Source: a bacterium
GTDB taxonomy: Bacteria; Bacillota; Clostridia; Oscillospirales; CAG-272
Assembly: GCA_963627065.1 (NCBI GenBank)
Contig: CAVGAA010000001.1
Coordinates: 71,628-135,627 of the forward strand
Length of the DNA stretch: 64,000 nucleotides
Reading direction: 5' to 3'
In this document: piece after piece, positions 31,943-41,427 of the stretch
How positions within the stretch are numbered: position 1 is the first letter of the stretch
Layout: each line of letters starts with the position of its first letter
Made by a program: the position numbers and the translations under genes
Notes under the pieces: generated by a model
Database searches by the model: none
Told to the model about the DNA's origin: nothing
What the model saw: the letters and a program-made list of their open reading frames with translations, nothing else

Positions 31943-32177
31943 GATAAATAAAGAAATTATCAAGAGAATTTTGTTGTGTTACAATAGATGTGTCACAAAA
32001 AGCGTTGTTCAGTGTTAGGGCGGAATAAAAATTGGCTATTTATCTAATCGCCTGATGAAAAAAATCAACAATATTATATTTCGTAAGAATACACAAAACC
32101 GCACAAATCAAATTTTCAATCGTTTTTTTGTGTGTTTTGTGCTAATTTTATGTTATAATTGGCTGCTTTCGTTATTT

Positions 32178-32207
32178 TACTGTAAAAAGGTACACTTTTT
32201 TATAGTA
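32178..32207. repeat. 30-bp palindromic unit, copy 1 (TACTGTAAAAA-GGTACAC-TTTTTTATAGTA)
   Basis: Read directly. Its reverse complement closely matches the unit at 32338-32368. Confidence 0.8.
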
Positions 32208-32337
32208 AATTTTCTCACTTGTCAAGCATTACCAAAAATGTCAAAATGCACGAATTACAATGATGTTTATCTGTTATTGTAAACATTATATCACAAAAAG
32301 AAACGTTTGTCAAGCCTTTTTTTGATATTTATTCGAA

Positions 32338-32368
32338 AACTGTAAAAAAGTGTACCATTTTTACAGTG
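32338..32368. repeat. 30-bp palindromic unit, copy 2, inverted relative to copy 1 (AACTGTAAAAAA-GTGTACC-ATTTTTACAGTG)
   Basis: Read directly. It lies immediately upstream of the IS30-type transposase remnant. Confidence 0.8.
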
Positions 32369-32391
32369 GCTTTCATTGCATGTACAATTTT

Positions 32392-32680
32392 ATCTCTTTA
32401 ACTGAAAGTATGCTCCGTTTTAGCATTAGATTGAAGGTAGAGCCACATTCTGTGGAGACGGTAGACGAAGCCTTAAAAGCCGTTGTTTACCGCATACGGA
32501 AGTCGCTATTCAGAGGTCTTCCAAATCATTACAAGTGATAACGGATTGGAGTTTGCACATCTCGCCGAACTTAAAAAAATCGGTATCGGAGTCTACTTTA
32601 CCCACCCATACACGTCCTGCGAAAAACGGACCGTCGAGTGCCACAACAAGACGTTGAGACGGTTTATACCGAAGAAAAAA
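32392..32680 (+). pseudogene. IS30-family transposase remnant (central/C-terminal catalytic part only, frameshifted)
   Basis: Two frames carry ISLTESMLRFSIRLKVEPHSVETVDEALKAV, then FQIITSDNGLEFAHLAELKKIGIGVYFTHPYTSCEKRTVECHNKTLRRFIPKKK. These resemble the IS30 segments LTLvERkTRf and SITsDNGsEF...YFahPYssWERGtNEN...RRfiPK. The N-terminal half is absent. Confidence 0.65.
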
Positions 32681-32789
32681 GAGCATTGCGAATTATTGCA
32701 TTTTGCTATTGCAATTTCTACATTATTTAATAAGATAATGATAATTTTTTTATTTTCTTGCTGTGATAAAATAATGGAGGGCTATTTTG

Positions 32790-33809
32790 ATGAAACGAAA
32801 CCCGCAAAAAGAGTTTTATTTTCAATGGCATTTTTTGAATTCGTGTAATTTACGTTGCAAACATTGCTATCAAGAAGATTACAGATGTCAGGACATGGAT
32901 TTTGAAACTTTAAAAAAAATCGCTGATGAAATAATTAAAGCATTAATTCGATGGGATATGTACGGTCGCATATCTTTGACTGGAGGGGAACCTTTTTTAA
33001 GTAAGCACTTACATCGGTTGCTTGAGTATTTGAATCAATCGGAAAGGATCATTTCAATTGATATACTTACCAACGGAACGCTAATTACAGAATCTGATAT
33101 TAAAAAAATGAAAAGTTATAAAAAGTTACATCAAATACAAATTTCGCTTGATGGTGGTACAGCAGAAATTCATGATAGCGTTCGTGGAGCAGGTAATTTT
33201 GAAAAAGCATTACAAGGTATTAGGTTATTGAAGCAATCCGGTGTTGAAGTTGCTTTGATGTATACCTTGCAACAACTAAATAAGGATGGATATAACGATT
33301 TCATAGATGTTGCTTTGAGAGAAAATGTTGATGCAATTACGATTGAACGAGTTACCCCGTGCGGTCAAAGTGCGTTGCAAGACTTAATACCTGCAGATGA
33401 AATTAGAAGAATCTATACGGAAATTACTCGAAGAGCCAATGGTATGTCATCAAAACCAGTCATTAGACGAGCTCGTCCATTATGGATTAATACAATGTGT
33501 GATAACATTCGCTCTGATTGTAATATTGGGGGCTTTTGTCCCGTTGGGTTTACAGCTTTAGCAATACTCCATGACGGAACCGTCCTTCCTTGTCGAAGAA
33601 TGGAAATTCCATTAGGAAACATTTTAACGGATGGCTTGTTTAAAATTTGGTATTCAAGTGAAGTTCTTTGGAAGATACGTGACAAAAATAATTTAAAAGG
33701 TAAATGTCATGGATGCGAACATCTTTCTGCGTGTGGGGGATGCAGGGCTGTGGCATATGCAACAACTGGTGATTATTTGGAGGAGGATCCGCAATGCTGG
33801 AAAAACTAA
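32790..33809 (+). CDS. Radical SAM / SPASM-domain peptide-modifying maturase
   Basis: CNLRCKHC (CX3CX2C) and SLTGGEPF. The C-terminal auxiliary-cluster motifs are CPVGFTALAILHDGTVLPC (CX12GX4C) and CHGCEHLSACGGC...C. GGAGGG SD is 8 nt upstream. Confidence 0.85.
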   Translation: MKRNPQKEFYFQWHFLNSCNLRCKHCYQEDYRCQDMDFETLKKIADEIIKALIRWDMYGRISLTGGEPFLSKHLHRLLEYLNQSERIISIDILTNGTLITESDIKKMKSYKKLHQIQISLDGGTAEIHDSVRGAGNFEKALQGIRLLKQSGVEVALMYTLQQLNKDGYNDFIDVALRENVDAITIERVTPCGQSALQDLIPADEIRRIYTEITRRANGMSSKPVIRRARPLWINTMCDNIRSDCNIGGFCPVGFTALAILHDGTVLPCRRMEIPLGNILTDGLFKIWYSSEVLWKIRDKNNLKGKCHGCEHLSACGGCRAVAYATTGDYLEEDPQCWKN

Positions 33810-34078
33810 GTAATGTCTATCAATTAAATAATAATATTATTATAAAAGGTATCAATGACAAGTATTGGGCATTGGATACAAACACAGGTGCACAATTCCG
33901 ATTGAATGAATTATCATTTGATATTTTGTCTTTGACAAACGGTAATAACTCAGTTGATTACATCGTTGAACAGCAATTTGCAAAATATTCTGTAAAGAAA
34001 GAACTCCTAATTCGTGATATTCTTTCTTTTCTTGAAACAGCCTTGAATAAGGGGCTTATTTCAAAGAAAAAGGAATAA
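33794..34078 (+). CDS. PqqD-family peptide chaperone (RiPP recognition element)
   Basis: 94 aa: FRLNELSFDILSLTNGNNSVDYIVEQQFAKYSV...ILSFLETALNKGLI, a PqqD-like pattern. AGGAGG SD lies upstream and the gene overlaps the maturase gene by 16 nt. Confidence 0.8.
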   Translation: MLEKLSNVYQLNNNIIIKGINDKYWALDTNTGAQFRLNELSFDILSLTNGNNSVDYIVEQQFAKYSVKKELLIRDILSFLETALNKGLISKKKE

Positions 34079-34084
34079 TGATAT

Positions 34085-35275
34085 ATGCTTATAGATGCAC
34101 ACAGCCATTTAGGCACAAATGATTTGTGTACTGATGGAAAATCATTTAGGTATGATTTATCTAATACAGCAGATGAATACATTAAATACATGGATGCGAA
34201 TGGTATAAATAAAGCTGTGATACTTCCAATACCAGGAAACAATTACGACTCTGTAAAATCTAATGACGTTCTTTATTCGGCCAGTCTTAAGTATCCTAAC
34301 AGATTTATACCATTTTGCAAGTTGGACAGTTTTTTACCAACTAACATTATGTGCAAGGGGTTTTATGGGGCCAAGTATCATATGGTGTATGAATCTTATC
34401 CAAAAACAACCTTAAGTCAATATTATAAACTTTTGGAATACTATGGATTCCCTTTAATTATTCATGCAAAGTATCCTGAAAAGGGGAAACAAATTTGTGA
34501 TATCCTCGAAGTGGCACCAAATTTAAAGATAATACTTGCACATATGGGACGAGGTCATATTTATACTGATGAAATGATTCCAGATTTGTTAAATCAATTT
34601 AAGAATGTTCCGAATTTATTTTTTGAATCCTCAACTGTGGGTAGATCAAGAATGATTGAACTTGCTTGCGAGACTATTGGTGCTGATCGTCTTATGTACG
34701 GTTCAGACTATCCGTTTGGCAAGGCATGGTTCAGAGACTCATTTATTCCTGATGATGAAATGTCCGTAATATCAAAAGCGAATATTACAGTTGAAGAAAA
34801 AGAGTTAATTCTTCATGGAACAATCGAAAAGATTATTAAGAATTGCGATGAGAAGAGAAATGGTTTTTATGTGCGCCCTTATTTAAAGACTGATAAAAAT
34901 GAATTTGAAGCACTATTAGCATCACTCTCAAAATCTGATAGGAAGTTGCTTGCAATTGATAAAAAAATGTCTGTAATACACGATTGTATGAGAAATGAGC
35001 GGCATATTTATTTAGCTATTAATGCCGGGAAGATAGTCGGTTTCTTCAGGGAAAGCGGACGTTCTAATCATACTTTTATGTTAGAGGAATTTGCGGTTTT
35101 TCCTCAGTATCGTGGGCATGGTTTTTCTAAGTTAATGTTGCAATACTATACTGTATTTTTTGAAAAATCCTCTGTAAAGACATTATCGTCGAATGTCACC
35201 ATGAATCATATTTTGCCGATGTTTTCCTTTGTGCCAGTTTATGGAAAAGAAACGATAAATTGGATTCGAGCGTAG
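34085..35275 (+). CDS. Fusion protein: amidohydrolase_2 (TIM-barrel metal hydrolase) N-domain plus GNAT acetyltransferase C-domain
   Basis: LIDAHSHLG, ILAHMGRG and MYGSDYPF in the first 260 aa or so. The GNAT motif A, FAVFPQYRGHGFSKLML, lies near the C-terminus. Confidence 0.7.
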   Translation: MLIDAHSHLGTNDLCTDGKSFRYDLSNTADEYIKYMDANGINKAVILPIPGNNYDSVKSNDVLYSASLKYPNRFIPFCKLDSFLPTNIMCKGFYGAKYHMVYESYPKTTLSQYYKLLEYYGFPLIIHAKYPEKGKQICDILEVAPNLKIILAHMGRGHIYTDEMIPDLLNQFKNVPNLFFESSTVGRSRMIELACETIGADRLMYGSDYPFGKAWFRDSFIPDDEMSVISKANITVEEKELILHGTIEKIIKNCDEKRNGFYVRPYLKTDKNEFEALLASLSKSDRKLLAIDKKMSVIHDCMRNERHIYLAINAGKIVGFFRESGRSNHTFMLEEFAVFPQYRGHGFSKLMLQYYTVFFEKSSVKTLSSNVTMNHILPMFSFVPVYGKETINWIRA

Positions 35276-35280
35276 AAGCA

Positions 35281-36204
35281 ATGATTTTTAATAACGATAT
35301 TCTAAAAATCACCAATAATAAACGGGATTTTTATTCTCCAATTATAAGTGCGTTAGTTGAAACTAAATCTATAGAATTCTTTTTATCAAAAGGATTTCAT
35401 CTGTTTGCGTTACCAATTATGAATGATGCAGTTGCTACGAAAGAAAAAACGATTCAATTTAATTTTGACCATCAAAATATCGAATTAAATAGCAGTCAAG
35501 CAATGCGAATCTCAGCTTTATCTGCCTTTTATAATCAAGTTTTTTCAGTGAGTAAATGTTTTAGAAATGAAAAAAACGTTGATTTTTCGCATTTATCGGA
35601 ATTCACGATGTTAGAAGCAGAGTTTTCAATCGAAAAGGAGACTGATATTTTCGATTTGATAGAGAATTATTTAGCGTTTATTATTGACTGGTTTGACACA
35701 TTTATTGTTGAACAAAATTTGACAGATGTTTTTAAGCATCGTACTGTTTCGTTTCCCATAGAGCAAATTAATTATGATTTGTTGCTAAAAAGTGAGAAAA
35801 TCAAAGGCAAGAAGTTAATTTTTGATCATTTTGATTTTTGCGATATTGATGTAAGTGCGGATATCGATAAACCCATCTTTATTGTTAATTATCCGTGCGT
35901 TGGTTCTTGGCGGGCCAAACGCAAAGATAACTTACATGCTTTTTTGTACAACTTGATTCTACCATGCGGCTTTGGAGAATTAGTTGAGTGTTCAATTAGG
36001 GAAATCGATTATGCTTTTTATAAGCAGAAATTTGATTACTTAGGAATGTCCGAGTCTTATTCTTGGTACTTAGATGCTATGCGTATTAATCACGGTATAA
36101 AAGCTGGCTTTGGTCTTGGTTTAGAGCGACTTGCAGCTTGGCTTATGGATTTAAAAGCTATTGGCGATCAATTAATCTTTCCAAGATTGCCAGGAGGACA
36201 ATAA
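35281..36204 (+). CDS. Stand-alone class II (IIb, Asp/Asn/Lys-RS-like) aminoacyl-tRNA-synthetase catalytic core without an anticodon-binding domain
   Basis: Motif 2-like VSKCFRNEKNVDFSHLSEFTMLEAEF and motif 3-like GFGLGLERLAAWLMDL...LIFPRLPGG. At about 307 aa it is too short to hold the N-terminal OB fold. Alternative TTG start at 35260. Confidence 0.7.
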   Translation: MIFNNDILKITNNKRDFYSPIISALVETKSIEFFLSKGFHLFALPIMNDAVATKEKTIQFNFDHQNIELNSSQAMRISALSAFYNQVFSVSKCFRNEKNVDFSHLSEFTMLEAEFSIEKETDIFDLIENYLAFIIDWFDTFIVEQNLTDVFKHRTVSFPIEQINYDLLLKSEKIKGKKLIFDHFDFCDIDVSADIDKPIFIVNYPCVGSWRAKRKDNLHAFLYNLILPCGFGELVECSIREIDYAFYKQKFDYLGMSESYSWYLDAMRINHGIKAGFGLGLERLAAWLMDLKAIGDQLIFPRLPGGQ

Positions 36205-36206
36205 AA

Positions 36207-37010
36207 ATGTCAATTGAATTAGAAAGATGCACTATGGCCTTACATAGGATGGTTTATGAAATGAATCGTAAGGGCATAGAGCAATCAAGAATTACTAAAT
36301 GTGCTACGCAATTACTAATGAGCGGAGTTTCCCAAAATTCAATATCGACGGAAATTGTTCAAAAATGTATTGAAACTCAAAACAATGATGGCGGTTGGGT
36401 TGCAGTTGTTGACACAATATGGAATGCAAAGTTTTTATCATTTTTTAGTAAAACCAACGAAAATATTGTTCATGCATATCGATATTTAAATGATAACAAA
36501 GTGGATTTTGGTTTTGGAAGGTCTAAACGTGATATAGGTAGAATTCCGGTAACTGGTATCGCTTATTACTTACATCCTCAATTGGCAACTTTGGATGGAT
36601 TAAGATGGTTGGAAAATCTTTGGATTTCAGAAAAGAATGGACTAACATATAAAGCAGCTTATACATTGATGGCTTTCAAACGCACAAATTATAAGCCGTT
36701 AAATATTGGGGTTATAGAAGAAGCTGTTCTTTGGTTATTGTCTCAGCAGGAAAAAGATGGTGGCTTTTCTCCTTGGAAACATCATCCTGTAGGGACCAAT
36801 GTTTATTGTACGGCTCTTTCGTTGATTGGCTTACTTCAATACAATGAGTTTATTCCTCAAGCTAATGCTGCTATTGAGGCAGCTTATCAGTATATTTATA
36901 AAAATCAGTTAATCAATGGACTGTGGCCGTATCATGAATTAGAAGATGGTGGGGCATGGGGAATGCAAGCTATGTTTCAATATGAAAGCGAGTACGCACA
37001 TGAGTTCTAA
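36207..37010 (+). CDS. Prenyltransferase / squalene-oxidase-repeat (alpha-alpha toroid) protein
   Basis: Repeats QNNDGGWVAV, QQEKDGGFSPW and NGLWPYHELEDGGAWG. GGAGG SD precedes the ATG at 36207. Confidence 0.65.
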   Translation: MSIELERCTMALHRMVYEMNRKGIEQSRITKCATQLLMSGVSQNSISTEIVQKCIETQNNDGGWVAVVDTIWNAKFLSFFSKTNENIVHAYRYLNDNKVDFGFGRSKRDIGRIPVTGIAYYLHPQLATLDGLRWLENLWISEKNGLTYKAAYTLMAFKRTNYKPLNIGVIEEAVLWLLSQQEKDGGFSPWKHHPVGTNVYCTALSLIGLLQYNEFIPQANAAIEAAYQYIYKNQLINGLWPYHELEDGGAWGMQAMFQYESEYAHEF

Positions 37011-38253
37011 AAAATCCATTTTATTGGTATACCCTAAACCGCAATTTGATAAGAATCCGCGATTCGGTTTTTCAATTCAGCTGATGCAATTAGCTACAAT
37101 TTTGAAGCAAAAGTATAAAGTATTTTTTTTGGATTATTCTTATCTCGATTTTGATGAAAGCAAATTTCGCTTATATTTGTTAAATAATAACATATCGCAT
37201 ATTGTCGTTGAATTTGATTCTTTTTCACTAAAAAGATCTGAGAATTATGAAAATGCACTCTTATTACTTAATATTGCAAGGGAAAGAAAAATAATTTCAG
37301 TTGCTTTTGGTAATGATTGCATAATGGATAATTCAAATAGCATTTGTGCGGATTACATTATTAGAGAAGATCCATTATTAAAAATCGGGAAAATCTTTAA
37401 TGTTTTTTCTGATGAGTTGACGGAAATGGAATATGATGTTATTCCATTTCCAGATCGCGAATTGCTGAAAACTAATCCGTTTTTCTTAAAGAATTCTAAT
37501 TCTACACTTATTCGTACATCTGAAGGCTGTTTAAATACATGTTCTTTTTGTCAGCGTCGGGGGTGGCAAAAGAAATATAAAGCACATAATATTGAATATG
37601 TTATACGAGAATTTGAATATTTAAAGGACCACAATTACCAAAATGTATGGGTTGCAGATGATAATTTTACCTTCGATTTAAGTCGAGCAAAGAAAATTCT
37701 TTCAATTCTTTCGCAACAAAAATTAACTGTTGGAATGAATCTAGCGATTAGTAGCTGGACAAGAATAGATGAAGATTTATTACAGTTGGCACAACAGGCA
37801 AATGTAAAAATAATTAGTATGGGTATAGAATCTGCTAATTATGAAATATTGGACTTTTATAACAAAAAAATAGATTTACAAAGGACTAAACAGTTAATCG
37901 AATATGCAGATCTGCTTGGTATTTATACTATTGGAAATTTTATCATAGGAGCACCTATGGAAACAATGGTAACTATTGAAAATACCTTTGACTATATAAT
38001 GTCCACTAAATTAGATCAAATTAACATTAAAACTTTAGATTATATGCTCGGGTCAGTATTGTATGAAAATTTGCCAAAAAAGGTAGAGCACCACTATTTT
38101 GCATGCTCGGAAAATGGGTTGTGCAGTTTTTCACTAAATGAATTATCGAAAATTAAGAAAGATTTTCTTACAAGATTTAATTTGGAGAGGCAAGATTTTC
38201 GAATGGAAAAAATAAAAAAATTTGGACTTCCATATATTCCTTTAAAGATATAA
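37000..38253 (+). CDS. B12-binding-domain radical SAM enzyme (class B type)
   Basis: The N-terminal Rossmann-like segment (ILLVYPKPQ...KVFFLDYSY) is followed by RTSEGCLNTCSFCQ (CX3CX2C). It overlaps the previous gene by 11 nt. Confidence 0.75.
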   Translation: MSSKKSILLVYPKPQFDKNPRFGFSIQLMQLATILKQKYKVFFLDYSYLDFDESKFRLYLLNNNISHIVVEFDSFSLKRSENYENALLLLNIARERKIISVAFGNDCIMDNSNSICADYIIREDPLLKIGKIFNVFSDELTEMEYDVIPFPDRELLKTNPFFLKNSNSTLIRTSEGCLNTCSFCQRRGWQKKYKAHNIEYVIREFEYLKDHNYQNVWVADDNFTFDLSRAKKILSILSQQKLTVGMNLAISSWTRIDEDLLQLAQQANVKIISMGIESANYEILDFYNKKIDLQRTKQLIEYADLLGIYTIGNFIIGAPMETMVTIENTFDYIMSTKLDQINIKTLDYMLGSVLYENLPKKVEHHYFACSENGLCSFSLNELSKIKKDFLTRFNLERQDFRMEKIKKFGLPYIPLKI

Positions 38254-38254
38254 T

Positions 38255-39532
38255 ATGAATTATTGGATTTTGGGGTTAGGTGCTGTTGCGCAATGTTTTT
38301 TAAAACTTTTATGTGCTAACGAATCAATAGATGCTTCACATGTATATTGCATCGAGCCTGATTGCAAAAAAGTCTCAATTTTTGTAAAATTAGGTTTTAT
38401 TAAAAAAAACTTTATATGCAATGCGTTAAATAGATATAATTATGCAACGGTTTTACAATCATTGATTCCAAAGGATTATTGTATCGATTTTTCTAGTTTA
38501 ACCAATTCTAAAGATTTACTAGTTTTTTGTGCGAAAAAGAAAGTTCATTACCTTTCCGTAGCAGATACTTTTTGGAAAGATGAGTCAGAGAATTTCGGAG
38601 CAAGCCACATGGATTATTTGAATATAATTTCTTCTTTTCCTAATAATCCAACGTCGATTATACAATTTGGTATGAATCCAGGATTGGTTTCATCATTTGC
38701 AAAGCAAAGCATAAAAATGCTCTGGTCAATCAATACTTTGACAGAATCAAAAAATGCCATTAAGCAGCAGGATGAGTTTTGTATTGCAAAAAAAGCATCA
38801 ATCTTAAATATAAATAAAATTTGTATCTGTGATTGGGACATGCAACATTCCAATCTCAATATTGAGAAAAGCACTATTTACTCGACATGGAACATTGATG
38901 CTTTTGTGAATGAAGCAACAACTCGTCCGGAATATCCTGCAGGCATTCCCAATGACGACAACATGGATGAGATAGTAGATTTTAATCTTAACTATCGAAG
39001 GAAAAATGTTCCTGCTTATGCAGCTATGCATGAATTAGTTTCACCTATAAACAGTACTAATGGCTTTATTATGACGCATGAAGAAACATACTCTATTGCA
39101 CATTATTTGTCGTATAGAGAATCTGATAAAATAACTTATAGGCCTGAAGTTATATTTGTATACAAACCATGTAATGAATCAATATTTTCTATTAAGAATC
39201 TATTGAAGGCCGGTTTTGATAGATTAGATTCATTTCAAAAACACATTTTAGTTCCTAGAGAAATCATTTCAGGTGGAGAGTATGTAGGGGTAACATTATA
39301 TCAAAATGATATACCTATATTTTACTTCGGAAATGATTGCGAAAAAAGTGGTATAGAAGGCTCTAATATAACTGTATTTCAAGTCGCTGTTTCGTGTTTT
39401 GCTGCATTGAAATACATAGAAACGCATGCGGATTTTGGAATACTTTTCCCGGAAGATGTTGATGATGATTTTATTATCGATATTGTTCGTCAATTTATGA
39501 GGTTGAATTATGGATTTATTAAAAAAGCATAA
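38255..39532 (+). CDS. Saccharopine-dehydrogenase / homospermidine-synthase-like NAD(P)-binding protein
   Basis: N-terminal ILGLGAVAQ Rossmann loop. FGMNPGLVSSFAKQSI resembles the GANPGLVSHFVKQA motif recalled for homospermidine synthases. It starts 1 nt after the preceding stop. Confidence 0.5.
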   Translation: MNYWILGLGAVAQCFLKLLCANESIDASHVYCIEPDCKKVSIFVKLGFIKKNFICNALNRYNYATVLQSLIPKDYCIDFSSLTNSKDLLVFCAKKKVHYLSVADTFWKDESENFGASHMDYLNIISSFPNNPTSIIQFGMNPGLVSSFAKQSIKMLWSINTLTESKNAIKQQDEFCIAKKASILNINKICICDWDMQHSNLNIEKSTIYSTWNIDAFVNEATTRPEYPAGIPNDDNMDEIVDFNLNYRRKNVPAYAAMHELVSPINSTNGFIMTHEETYSIAHYLSYRESDKITYRPEVIFVYKPCNESIFSIKNLLKAGFDRLDSFQKHILVPREIISGGEYVGVTLYQNDIPIFYFGNDCEKSGIEGSNITVFQVAVSCFAALKYIETHADFGILFPEDVDDDFIIDIVRQFMRLNYGFIKKA

Positions 39533-39743
39533 ATGTTCTCATTGCAGAGGAGCTGGTAAAATATTTTGTTACGAATGTAGGGGAACTGGAGGAATTAGCA
39601 ATTTTGAATTGCATGATCATGAAGGAAATTCATCGCTTTTTGATGGTGAATTATTAGACCGGTTGTGTTCCATATGTTTTGGCACTGGCAAAATTGTTTG
39701 TAAAGTTTGTAACGGAACAGGAAAAAGTTGTAGACTGTGTTAA
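39510..39743 (+). CDS. Small DnaJ-CR-type zinc-finger protein (4x CxxCxGxG, 77 aa)
   Basis: CSHCRGAG, CYECRGTG, CSICFGTG and CKVCNGTG, plus a terminal CRLC. GAGG SD lies upstream and the gene overlaps the previous gene by 23 nt. Confidence 0.7.
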   Translation: MDLLKKHKCSHCRGAGKIFCYECRGTGGISNFELHDHEGNSSLFDGELLDRLCSICFGTGKIVCKVCNGTGKSCRLC

Positions 39744-39782
39744 TCCACAGATTCTATAAATATAAAAGAAAGGAGAAAAATT

Positions 39783-39911
39783 ATGGAAAAAATGTCTTAT
39801 AGTGCTCCCGTCCTTGAAGAGGTTACTGAGATGGTCTTCACAAAAGAAGTTTGGGAAGAATTTAACAGTGGTCGCTGGTGCTTTGGTTGCTCTAATTGCA
39901 ATTGCAACTAA
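39783..39911 (+). CDS. Candidate RiPP precursor peptide (42 aa), not in the ORF track
   Basis: AAAGGAG lies 7 nt before the ATG. Own translation: MEKMSYSAPVLEEVTEMVFTKEVWEEFNSGRWCFGCSNCNCN*. It has an acidic leader-like N-terminus and four Cys in the last 10 residues, and is the last gene of the island operon. Confidence 0.7.
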   Translation: MEKMSYSAPVLEEVTEMVFTKEVWEEFNSGRWCFGCSNCNCN

Positions 39912-39937
39912 AGTAGAATTTTAAGATTTAGGACGGG

Positions 39938-39990
39938 GATGCCATTCCTGATATATAGAGATATGTATCGGGGATGGTATCTTTGCATTT
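39938..39990 (+). terminator. Possible operon terminator after the precursor ORF
   Basis: GATGCCAT (39938-39945) pairs with ATGGTATC (39974-39981) with one G-U pair, followed by TTTGCATTTT. The loop is long, so this call is weak. Confidence 0.3.
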
Positions 39991-40889
39991 TACTTTTTCT
40001 CTTTGTACAACCGGTATTGCACGGGACTCATACCGTTCAGATTCATTTAAATTCTTTCGTTGTTGTAGTACGCAATGTACTCCTCCAATTTCTCAATGAA
40101 TCCCCGAGGGGATTCAAATTTTTCGCCGTAAAACATCTCAACTTTCAGCCGTCCGAAGAAATTTTCCATGACACTGTTGTCAAGGCAATTCCCTTTCCGT
40201 GACATACTCTGCGTGATGTGATGCTCGGCGAGAAGCCTCTGGTACTCGGGGTGCTGGTACTGCCAGCCTTGGTCGGAATGGAACAGCGGTCTTGCATCCG
40301 GCGGGAGTTTTTCGAACAATCCTGCCAACATATCCTTGACTTGTTGCAGGTTGGGACTCAGGGAAATAGTGTAGGCGAGGACCTCACGGTTAAATAAATC
40401 GAGGACGAGCGAGAGGTAGATTCTTACATCGAAGACCTTAAACTCCGTGATGTCTGTTGTTATCTTTTCGAACGGCTTATCTGCGTGAAAATCCCTGTTC
40501 AGCACGTTGTCGGCAGTCTTTCCGATCGTGCCTTTGTAGGAATTATAACTGCCGTTTTTGCTCTGTTTTCCCTTCAAACCGAGCATTTTCATCAGTTTCA
40601 GGACGGTTTTGTGGTTGATTTTGAAGTTTTCTGACCGCATGACAGCCAAGATTCGTCTGTAACCGTATCTGCCTTTGTTGTCGTCGAAGATTTTCTTGAT
40701 TGCCGTTTTTTCCTCTTGGTACTTGTCCTTGCCTTTTTGTTTCAGGTAATAGTAGAACGTACTCCTTGCCATTCCGGAAACAGCCAGCAGATCTTTCAGC
40801 GGAAACCATTGCCTCAGCTCAGCAGGTAAGGTCACATCCGGAAGCTCCGAGTACACCGAATAAACGGAATCTTTCCCGTCGGTCGTCAC
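39990..40889 (-). pseudogene. IS3-family transposase OrfB (integrase core) with a premature stop
   Basis: RSTFYYY, GYRRI, HSDQGWQY and GNCLDNSVMENFFG motifs. TAA at 40049-40047 interrupts ...YYNNERI*MNLNGMSPVQYRLYKEKK*, cutting off the conserved SPxxYR tail. Confidence 0.75.
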
Positions 40890-40934
40890 GAAACTCCTTG
40901 TTCGTAGCTACGGCTACGACCTGCGTCCTTTCAT

Positions 40935-41427
40935 TTAGACCGGCAGAAAATCTTCTCGCCCCTCGTCGCACTCTCTGCTTTCGGGTGTGACCTTTGAACG
41001 CTTTTTCCCGTTCTTTTGCTCGTCCGCTCGAACTAAGGCATCTAATTTTTTTAGGTATTCGTTTTCGATTCTGAGACGCAGATTTTCCGATGCCATTGCT
41101 TTGATTTCGTCCTCGGTCTGAGGGACATAAATCTCGCCCGATTTGCCTTGTTTCTTGCTTTCCTCAATAGTTGATTCTTTGATCTTTTTGAGATCCTTGA
41201 AAGCCTTTTCTCTCCGTTCTTCCATGAGACCTTTTTCGCCTTCCTCTTTGAATATGCGTTCCCATCGCTTAACCGTTTCGGTGTACCGACCTTCGCAACC
41301 TTTGGAATTTTTCCAATATTTGCGGACGGTTTCCTTGTAGCCGAGTCCGTGTTCCAGCATATCCATTATAACACGGATTTTGAAATTTGTCGAGTACTTT
41401 TTGTTTTTTTCTTTTGCCTTTTTTCAT
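40935..41427 (-). pseudogene. IS3-family OrfA (HTH) with a 1-nt frameshift just after its start codon
   Basis: ATG at 41427 follows AAGGAG but is +1 relative to the frame encoding KKAKEKNKKYSTNFKIRVIMDMLEHGLGYKETVRKY. The shift lies in the A6 run after the ATG. Confidence 0.7.

Follow-up and report, generated by a model that had tools for sequence, protein, structure and literature searches.

A stand-alone DnaJ-type zinc-finger gene beside a radical-SAM peptide precursor: a probable strain- or lineage-specific accessory of the operon

Background

In a 64,000-nucleotide stretch of DNA (the window) from a member of the Clostridia lineage CAG-272 (GenBank assembly GCA_963627065.1, contig CAVGAA010000001.1), a small gene encoding a DnaJ-type zinc finger (ZnF) is found inside an operon for a ribosomally synthesised and post-translationally modified peptide (RiPP). 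The gene immediately precedes that of the Cys-rich precursor, and the operon encodes two radical S-adenosylmethionine (SAM) enzymes. Does such a zinc finger belong to the peptide pathway, and what might it do there? Comparison with related clusters showed that the ZnF is not a conserved pathway component; it is a strain- or lineage-specific accessory. By family, it is an orphan new member of the known stand-alone DnaJ-type zinc fingers, not a new kind of system. On balance we lean towards a dispensable accessory, which by analogy with its characterised relatives would be a two-zinc, protein-binding holdase or adaptor co-expressed with the RiPP operon.

Identification of the ZnF gene

The ZnF gene (39510-39743, plus strand, stop codon included) was recognised from the list of open reading frames (ORFs), from Pfam and profile comparisons and from AlphaFold2/Foldseek as a free-standing gene of the type of the DnaJ cysteine-rich domain (CRD) and BSD2. 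Its product has 77 amino acids: MDLLKKHKCSHCRGAGKIFCYECRGTGGISNFELHDHEGNSSLFDGELLDRLCSICFGTGKIVCKVCNGTGKSCRLC. Exactly four CxxCxGxG motifs are present, all within one module on the plus strand: C9-S-H-C12-R-G-A-G16 (39534-39557), C20-Y-E-C23-R-G-T-G27 (39567-39590), C53-S-I-C56-F-G-T-G60 (39666-39689) and C64-K-V-C67-N-G-T-G71 (39699-39722). All four were evident in the sequence and in the columns of two family alignments, A2 and A3, described below. The two motif pairs are separated by a linker of 25 residues (G28-L52; 39591-39665, plus strand), modelled with low confidence at residues 33-41, and the length of this linker varied among the family members in A2. Eight residues lie N-terminal of motif 1 and six C-terminal of motif 4; the latter include an extra terminal C74-R-L-C77 (39729-39740, plus strand), which none of the 17 other free-standing family members in A2 shares. 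The J domain, the G/F region and the C-terminal client-binding domains are all missing from the 77 residues.

A Shine-Dalgarno-like GAGG (39499-39502, plus strand) precedes the ATG by 7 nt and falls within the 3' end of the upstream gene; no alternative in-frame start is present before Cys9. The upstream gene (38255-39532, plus strand; Pfam Sacchrp_dh_NADP) encodes a saccharopine-dehydrogenase-like (SacDH-like) protein of 425 amino acids. According to the ORF coordinates, the two genes overlap by 23 nt (39510-39532, plus strand), from which we infer that ZnF translation is coupled to that of the SacDH-like gene. The precursor ORF follows the ZnF after a gap of 39 nt. An earlier note on this DNA had described the four repeats with the terminal C-R-L-C, the 23-nt overlap with the preceding enzyme gene and the position just before the precursor, and every one of these details was borne out by the sequence.

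When the whole 64-kb window was scanned in six frames, the only CxxCxGxG motifs were the four of the ZnF itself, while shuffling of the surrounding 8-kb island gave an expected mean of 0.023 motifs. Because four perfect, regularly spaced motifs stand against these shuffle statistics, a chance origin was excluded. The GC content at third codon positions was 0.205 for the ZnF ORF, close to the 0.25-0.30 of the neighbouring island genes. The ZnF ORF is a genuine, intact gene.

Relationship of the ZnF to known zinc-finger proteins

As a single sequence, the ZnF matched Pfam BSD2_CRD best (PF25436; 20.8 bits, cut-off 27), with further sub-threshold matches to DnaJ_CXXCXGXG (PF00684; 17.3 bits, E 0.0056, cut-off 32.7) and Anti-TRAP (PF15777; 13.9 bits, cut-off 32). 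NCBIfam RtpA (NF058604) was matched with 19.3 bits and did not reach its equivalog cut-off of 65; NCBIfam contained no curated family for the ZnF, the precursor, the SacDH-like protein or the amidohydrolase-GNAT protein of the operon. A word-indexed search with the single ZnF query returned zero homologues. Exhaustive phmmer comparison with 1.84 billion representatives returned 109 proteins at E<=1e-3 (best 8.5e-12), none of them near 50% identity and none self-like. Many of the 109 were free-standing proteins of 62-82 amino acids with the same layout of two motifs plus two (2+2). Viral collections and a phage database yielded relatives of neither the ZnF nor the precursor, and PHROGs gave weak matches only.

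Alignments were made of the window ZnF with 17 free-standing relatives (A2) and with 23 (A3). The eight motif cysteines and the motif glycines were invariant or nearly so in both, the remainder was variable, and the ZnF was 31-45% identical to the aligned free-standing relatives. With the window ZnF counted, 24 of the 24 members of A3 matched BSD2_CRD and 23 matched DnaJ_CXXCXGXG at E<=0.01, and several relatives of this type were labelled 'DnaJ-class molecular chaperone' by their source. Among solved chains, the A3 profile matched the E. coli DnaJ CRD (1exk, E 2.8e-6, over a partial stretch) and Arabidopsis BSD2 (6ekb, E 1.6e-5), as well as DNAJA3 (2ctt) and anti-TRAP (3lcz, E 4e-4). The whole module was colinear with DnaJ 6jzb (profile positions 6-73 with residues 153-221, E 5e-4) and with Ydj1 1nlt (5-71 with 38-106).

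An AlphaFold2 model built on A3 had a mean predicted local distance difference test score (pLDDT) of 73.5, with 85-91 in the motif blocks. When the model was compared with the PDB by Foldseek, the six best matches were all AtBSD2 chains (E 1.3e-5 to 3.4e-4, probability 1.0, template modelling score 0.50-0.61, yet a root-mean-square deviation of 6-8 A), followed by DnaJA2 and anti-TRAP. The ZnF is thus placed in the DnaJ-CRD/BSD2 superfamily by its profile and probably also by its predicted fold, below the Pfam thresholds. Among characterised proteins, the stand-alone CRD of the BSD2 type comes nearest to it, both in sequence and in the fold predicted. The earlier description of a free-standing DnaJ-type module without a J domain therefore stood at superfamily level and failed at the level of the PF00684 model, with 17.3 bits against 32.7.

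BSD2 is an ATP-independent assembly chaperone that binds its client protein. BSD2 (Bundle Sheath Defective 2; PF25436; 6EKB/6EKC/8ILB), a two-zinc protein, resembles the ZnF in being small, in consisting essentially of a DnaJ-type module with four CxxCxGxG motifs and in having no J domain. In plants and algae, however, it serves the assembly of Rubisco in the chloroplast; the ZnF is bacterial and lies in a RiPP operon. The structural alignments of the two showed 24-32% identity, mostly in the motifs, and the ZnF has the extra C-terminal CxxC. The CRD of type I Hsp40 proteins (DnaJ/Ydj1/DNAJA, PF00684) shares the four repeats and is colinear in the profile, but the motifs are spaced more tightly in the ZnF (11 residues from start to start in each pair), its central linker has about 25 amino acids, and the domains that flank the CRD in type I Hsp40 (J, G/F and C-terminal client-binding) are missing. 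With these flanking domains lacking, identification of the ZnF as DnaJ proper was rejected.

To our knowledge, anti-TRAP is the one characterised free-standing mini-protein of bacteria that resembles the DnaJ CRD. This zinc-stabilised Bacillus protein (RtpA) acts purely by binding and blocking another protein. Its sequence and fold matches with the ZnF were weak, and it differs in having 53 amino acids, two motifs, one zinc and a tryptophan-regulatory context, compared with 77 amino acids and four motifs in the ZnF. Closest in length, layout and Cys/Gly columns were 62-82-residue metagenomic proteins with 2+2 CxxCxGxG motifs (P0055, P0116, P0096, P0102 and P0182); none of these is orthologous to the ZnF, none ends in CRLC, and those inspected occur in unrelated contexts. 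The ZnF belongs to this diffuse, uncharacterised population of 60-80-residue proteins. Anti-TRAP apart, free-standing DnaJ-type zinc-finger mini-proteins of bacteria are essentially unstudied, and the ZnF provides a defined operon context in which a client can be sought.

Distribution of the ZnF gene in related clusters

Relatives of the cluster were collected with two queries, the precursor and the SacDH-like protein. Among species-representative genomes, the precursor query identified three loci, in a Riflebacteria metagenome-assembled genome (MAG; L008), a Selenomonadaceae MAG (L009) and Lachnoclostridium sp. An131 (L010), and a metagenome scan yielded six more (L011-L016). At 90% identity, the precursor falls into a cluster of 25 members, among them proteins from Ruminococcus sp. 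CAG:624 and Heliomicrobium gestii; two of the members, when looked up, led to 17 further loci (L026-L042). Together with L002/L003, 28 related loci of about 203 kb were available.

When the nine cluster proteins of the window were used as tblastn queries, a core set was found at 35-78% identity along with the precursor. It comprised the radical-SAM/SPASM enzyme, the PqqD-like protein, the amidohydrolase-GNAT fusion, the alpha/alpha toroid and the B12-type radical-SAM enzyme, usually with the protein resembling a class-II aminoacyl-tRNA synthetase (aaRS). The ZnF query gave no match in the related loci, and a six-frame scan of all 28 detected zero CxxCxGxG motifs. As a positive control, the same scan detected three or four motifs in each locus encoding one of the small free-standing relatives (mini-ZnFs). 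Complete clusters without a ZnF were present in L009, L010, L012, L015, L026, L029-L032, L034 and L036. The gene order of the window was kept in L012, L026 and L029-L036, where the gene for the B12-type enzyme is followed after approximately 65-110 nt by the precursor.

A SacDH gene occurred in the window and in L002/L003 only and was absent from the other 26 loci. The homologue in L002/L003 (P0002; L002 1690-2967) is the closest one found (35% identity), and the order there is toroid, B12-type radical-SAM enzyme, SacDH, precursor; a 145-nt AT-rich spacer joins SacDH to the precursor, with no ZnF ORF between them. The SacDH-like and ZnF genes of the window are a 1.5-kb insert between the gene for the B12-type enzyme and the precursor. 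The sole other copy of the ZnF was on a contig of 1,249 bp (L001) that is 100% identical to window positions 39277-40525. Other accessory content also differs by lineage, the aaRS-like gene being missing in L009, L015 and L016.

The earlier note had named absence of the ORF from otherwise conserved homologous clusters as one finding that would refute its proposal; co-occurrence was seen in 0 of the 28 homologous loci, and a conserved link of the ZnF to the cluster is not supported. The placement of a ZnF in a RiPP operon is unusual and not conserved. Because all other versions of the cluster are without it, any role of the ZnF would be modulatory. For reconstitution of this radical-SAM peptide pathway the ZnF can be treated as optional, and probably the SacDH-like gene too, and the conserved minimal set consists of six enzymes and the 42-residue precursor.

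The genomic contexts of the ZnF relatives were also inspected. In the four mini-ZnF relatives with usable contigs, a RiPP context was found in 0 of 4. The P0116 gene lies downstream of an ABC ATPase (L017/18), P0102 among hypothetical genes near an AAA_25 protein (L019/20; L019 5001-5234), P0152 downstream of a TPR protein with hypothetical genes nearby, and P0182 is flanked by a hypothetical gene and a ParB-N6/N4 methylase, with a terminase next to it (L022/23; L022 5001-5204). Since mini-ZnFs occur in phage-like or mobile regions, the family appears to be carried frequently by mobile elements. The SacDH homologues P0003, P0004 and P0005 had unrelated neighbourhoods without a ZnF, so no recurrent module of SacDH and ZnF was found. 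More distant SacDH homologues adjoined HTH regulators, LRP1-like beta-propeller proteins or DnaB helicases.

A literature search found no paper joining CXXCXGXG with radical SAM, a RiPP with saccharopine dehydrogenase, or a RiPP with a DnaJ zinc finger, and the precursor core string was not found either. In the portions of the literature available, the DnaJ-like zinc fingers found were those of plastid biogenesis proteins only (PSA2, ZnJ6, FIP and others). Of these, ZnJ6 is reported to have four CxxCxGxG motifs, which make up a pair of zinc fingers (PMC7865324).

Possible function of the ZnF

The eight motif cysteines most probably bind zinc in two Zn(Cys)4 centres within a hairpin of the DnaJ-CRD/BSD2 type. 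By analogy with the solved DnaJ and BSD2 structures, motifs 1 and 4 would form one centre and motifs 2 and 3 the other. Judging from the DnaJ CRD, BSD2 and anti-TRAP, such a rigid hairpin may offer an ATP-independent surface for protein binding. The small cytoplasmic ZnF would then act as holdase or adaptor for a product of its own operon, a client suggested by gene position only. The SacDH-like enzyme would be the foremost candidate, since its gene overlaps that of the ZnF and both came in within one interval; next in line would be the Cys-rich precursor, or an intermediate derived from it. In either case the ZnF would modulate the peptide pathway rather than enable it. A role in holding or presenting a protein, or in handling metal, is possible for it as a strain-specific accessory only.

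Several observations weigh against an accessory holdase or adaptor of the operon. The single ZnF sequence lies under every curated cut-off, and the linker was modelled poorly (block pLDDT of 50-52 at residues 31-50, and below 50 at residues 33-41). With one identical second copy only (L001), no evidence of purifying selection on the ZnF is available. The four mini-ZnF loci have no recurring neighbourhood that would point to a client, and a role outside the RiPP pathway is nearly as plausible. In addition, a collection of 15 billion proteins includes the products of both neighbouring genes, taken from the 221-kb NCBI contig that carries the ZnF, but not the exact 77-residue sequence; the deposited annotation therefore probably passed over this ORF.

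In its most specific form, the holdase would be the first of the DnaJ-CRD/BSD2 type to have been recruited to a RiPP operon. It would bind either the Cys-rich core of the precursor or the tailoring enzyme of SacDH type, and would keep thiols metal-free or reduced, or gate an extra SacDH-dependent step found in this lineage only. We regard this version as doubtful. Should the precursor or a maturase turn out to be its binding partner, the ZnF would represent a new class of accessory chaperone for RiPP biosynthesis.

The strongest alternative to an accessory holdase is that the ZnF is a passenger gene. Mobile DNA would have brought it in, perhaps along with the SacDH-like gene; it would be expressed from the operon owing to its location only, and its function would be unrelated to peptide maturation. 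This explanation is a serious one, although we consider it unlikely. It agrees with the absence of the ZnF from all 28 related loci, with the variation of accessory genes between lineages of the cluster, with the mobile, phage-like or otherwise unrelated contexts of other mini-ZnFs, and with the position of the cluster in a 33% GC island, next to an IS3-type transposase, in a genome of about 47% GC. However, the gene is tightly integrated, being on the same strand as its neighbours, overlapping one by 23 nt and lying 39 nt from the other, with codon usage like that of the island, and no trace of an independent mobile unit was seen around it.

An accessory function in redox or metal chemistry is improbable. 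The ZnF would in this case be a thiol-disulfide oxidoreductase or isomerase like the plant proteins CYO1, LQY1 and ZnJ6, possibly by means of its C-terminal CxxC, or else a metal buffer or donor that shields the precursor core with its four Cys, or the Fe-S enzymes. Its four-motif type, shared with ZnJ6 (PMC7865324), is that of proteins with redox activity reported in the literature, the additional C74xxC77 is unique to this member, and the precursor encoded alongside has an invariant CFGC(S/T)NCNC core at its end. Against this, all other copies of the pathway do without a ZnF, and the host, judged from the sources of the related loci, is seemingly a Firmicute that lives anaerobically in gut or rumen and has a reducing cytoplasm.

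The earlier note had also raised the idea that the ZnF itself is a second Cys-rich substrate of the radical-SAM enzymes. Its small size, its Cys content and its position directly before the precursor speak for this, yet it is very improbable. BLASTP of the ZnF against the precursor gave no alignment at E<=100, and neither the precursor nor its leader EMVFTKEVWEEF resembled it. Moreover, all eight Cys belong to canonical zinc-binding motifs, which are invariant throughout a family known from non-RiPP contexts, and the ZnF is missing from the 28 related clusters. A second precursor was rejected, as the conserved leader and core are not shared and the contexts of the family are non-RiPP. A chance ORF or non-functional remnant, to which the lack of a close homologue, the one identical copy and the absence from the protein collection might point, was rejected as next to impossible on the motif statistics, the intact frame, the Shine-Dalgarno element and the colinearity with a real protein family.

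Gene organization of the operon and its surroundings

The ZnF is gene 8 of nine co-directional genes, and the RiPP cluster that surrounds it (32787-39911) is more interesting than the ZnF. The cluster is well conserved and apparently uncharacterised, with no NCBIfam model at cut-off and no paper found that contains the core string. It is spread among gut and rumen Firmicutes and a Riflebacteria MAG, its hosts including Ruminococcus sp. CAG:624, Lachnoclostridium sp. An131, a Selenomonadaceae MAG and Heliomicrobium gestii.

Based on the ORF list and Pfam, the first six genes, all on the plus strand, encode the radical-SAM/SPASM enzyme (32787-33809), the PqqD-like protein (33794-34078), the amidohydrolase-GNAT fusion (34085-35275), a class-II aaRS catalytic core only (AsnRS/AsnA/EpmA-like; 35260-36204), the terpene-cyclase-like alpha/alpha toroid (36138-37010) and the B12-type radical-SAM enzyme (36946-38253). 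The SacDH-like gene and the ZnF follow. The ninth gene encodes the 42-residue precursor MEKMSYSAPVLEEVTEMVFTKEVWEEFNSGRWCFGCSNCNCN (39783-39911, plus strand), supported by the ORF list and by conservation across loci. Its leader, given above, is strongly conserved, and its core ...EMVFTKEVWEEFNxGxWCFGC(S/T)NCNCN is invariant. According to sequence analysis, a terminator-like hairpin (39936-39983, plus strand) closes the operon.

The aaRS core in this RiPP operon is without an anticodon-binding domain and matched AsnRS, asparagine synthetase A and EpmA best, all far under the cut-offs. The toroid gene as listed overlaps the gene upstream of it by 67 nt, and the B12-type gene does so by 65 nt. 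Because tblastn alignments with homologues usually start near residue 21-24, and at residue 1 or 5 in a few loci, the true starts of both genes probably lie further downstream.

The cluster occupies an island of about 33% GC (window positions of approximately 32000-40000) within a genome of about 47% GC. An IS3-type transposase (rve + HTH_21; 40047-40889, minus strand, in region 40047-41366) lies 3' of the cluster. A candidate transposase remnant at 32483-32848 had no Pfam match. Related clusters are flanked by transposase or integrase genes too, for example L010, L012, L026 and L036.

In L009 (7304-8691) and L015 (553-1913), a creatininase-family gene and a SAM methyltransferase gene lie directly upstream of the radical-SAM/SPASM gene; this pair is another lineage-specific accessory, in variants without the aaRS-like gene. 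On one short contig (L041 3-283), two tandem precursor ORFs of 42 amino acids were called, and the precursor may be duplicated in some lineages.

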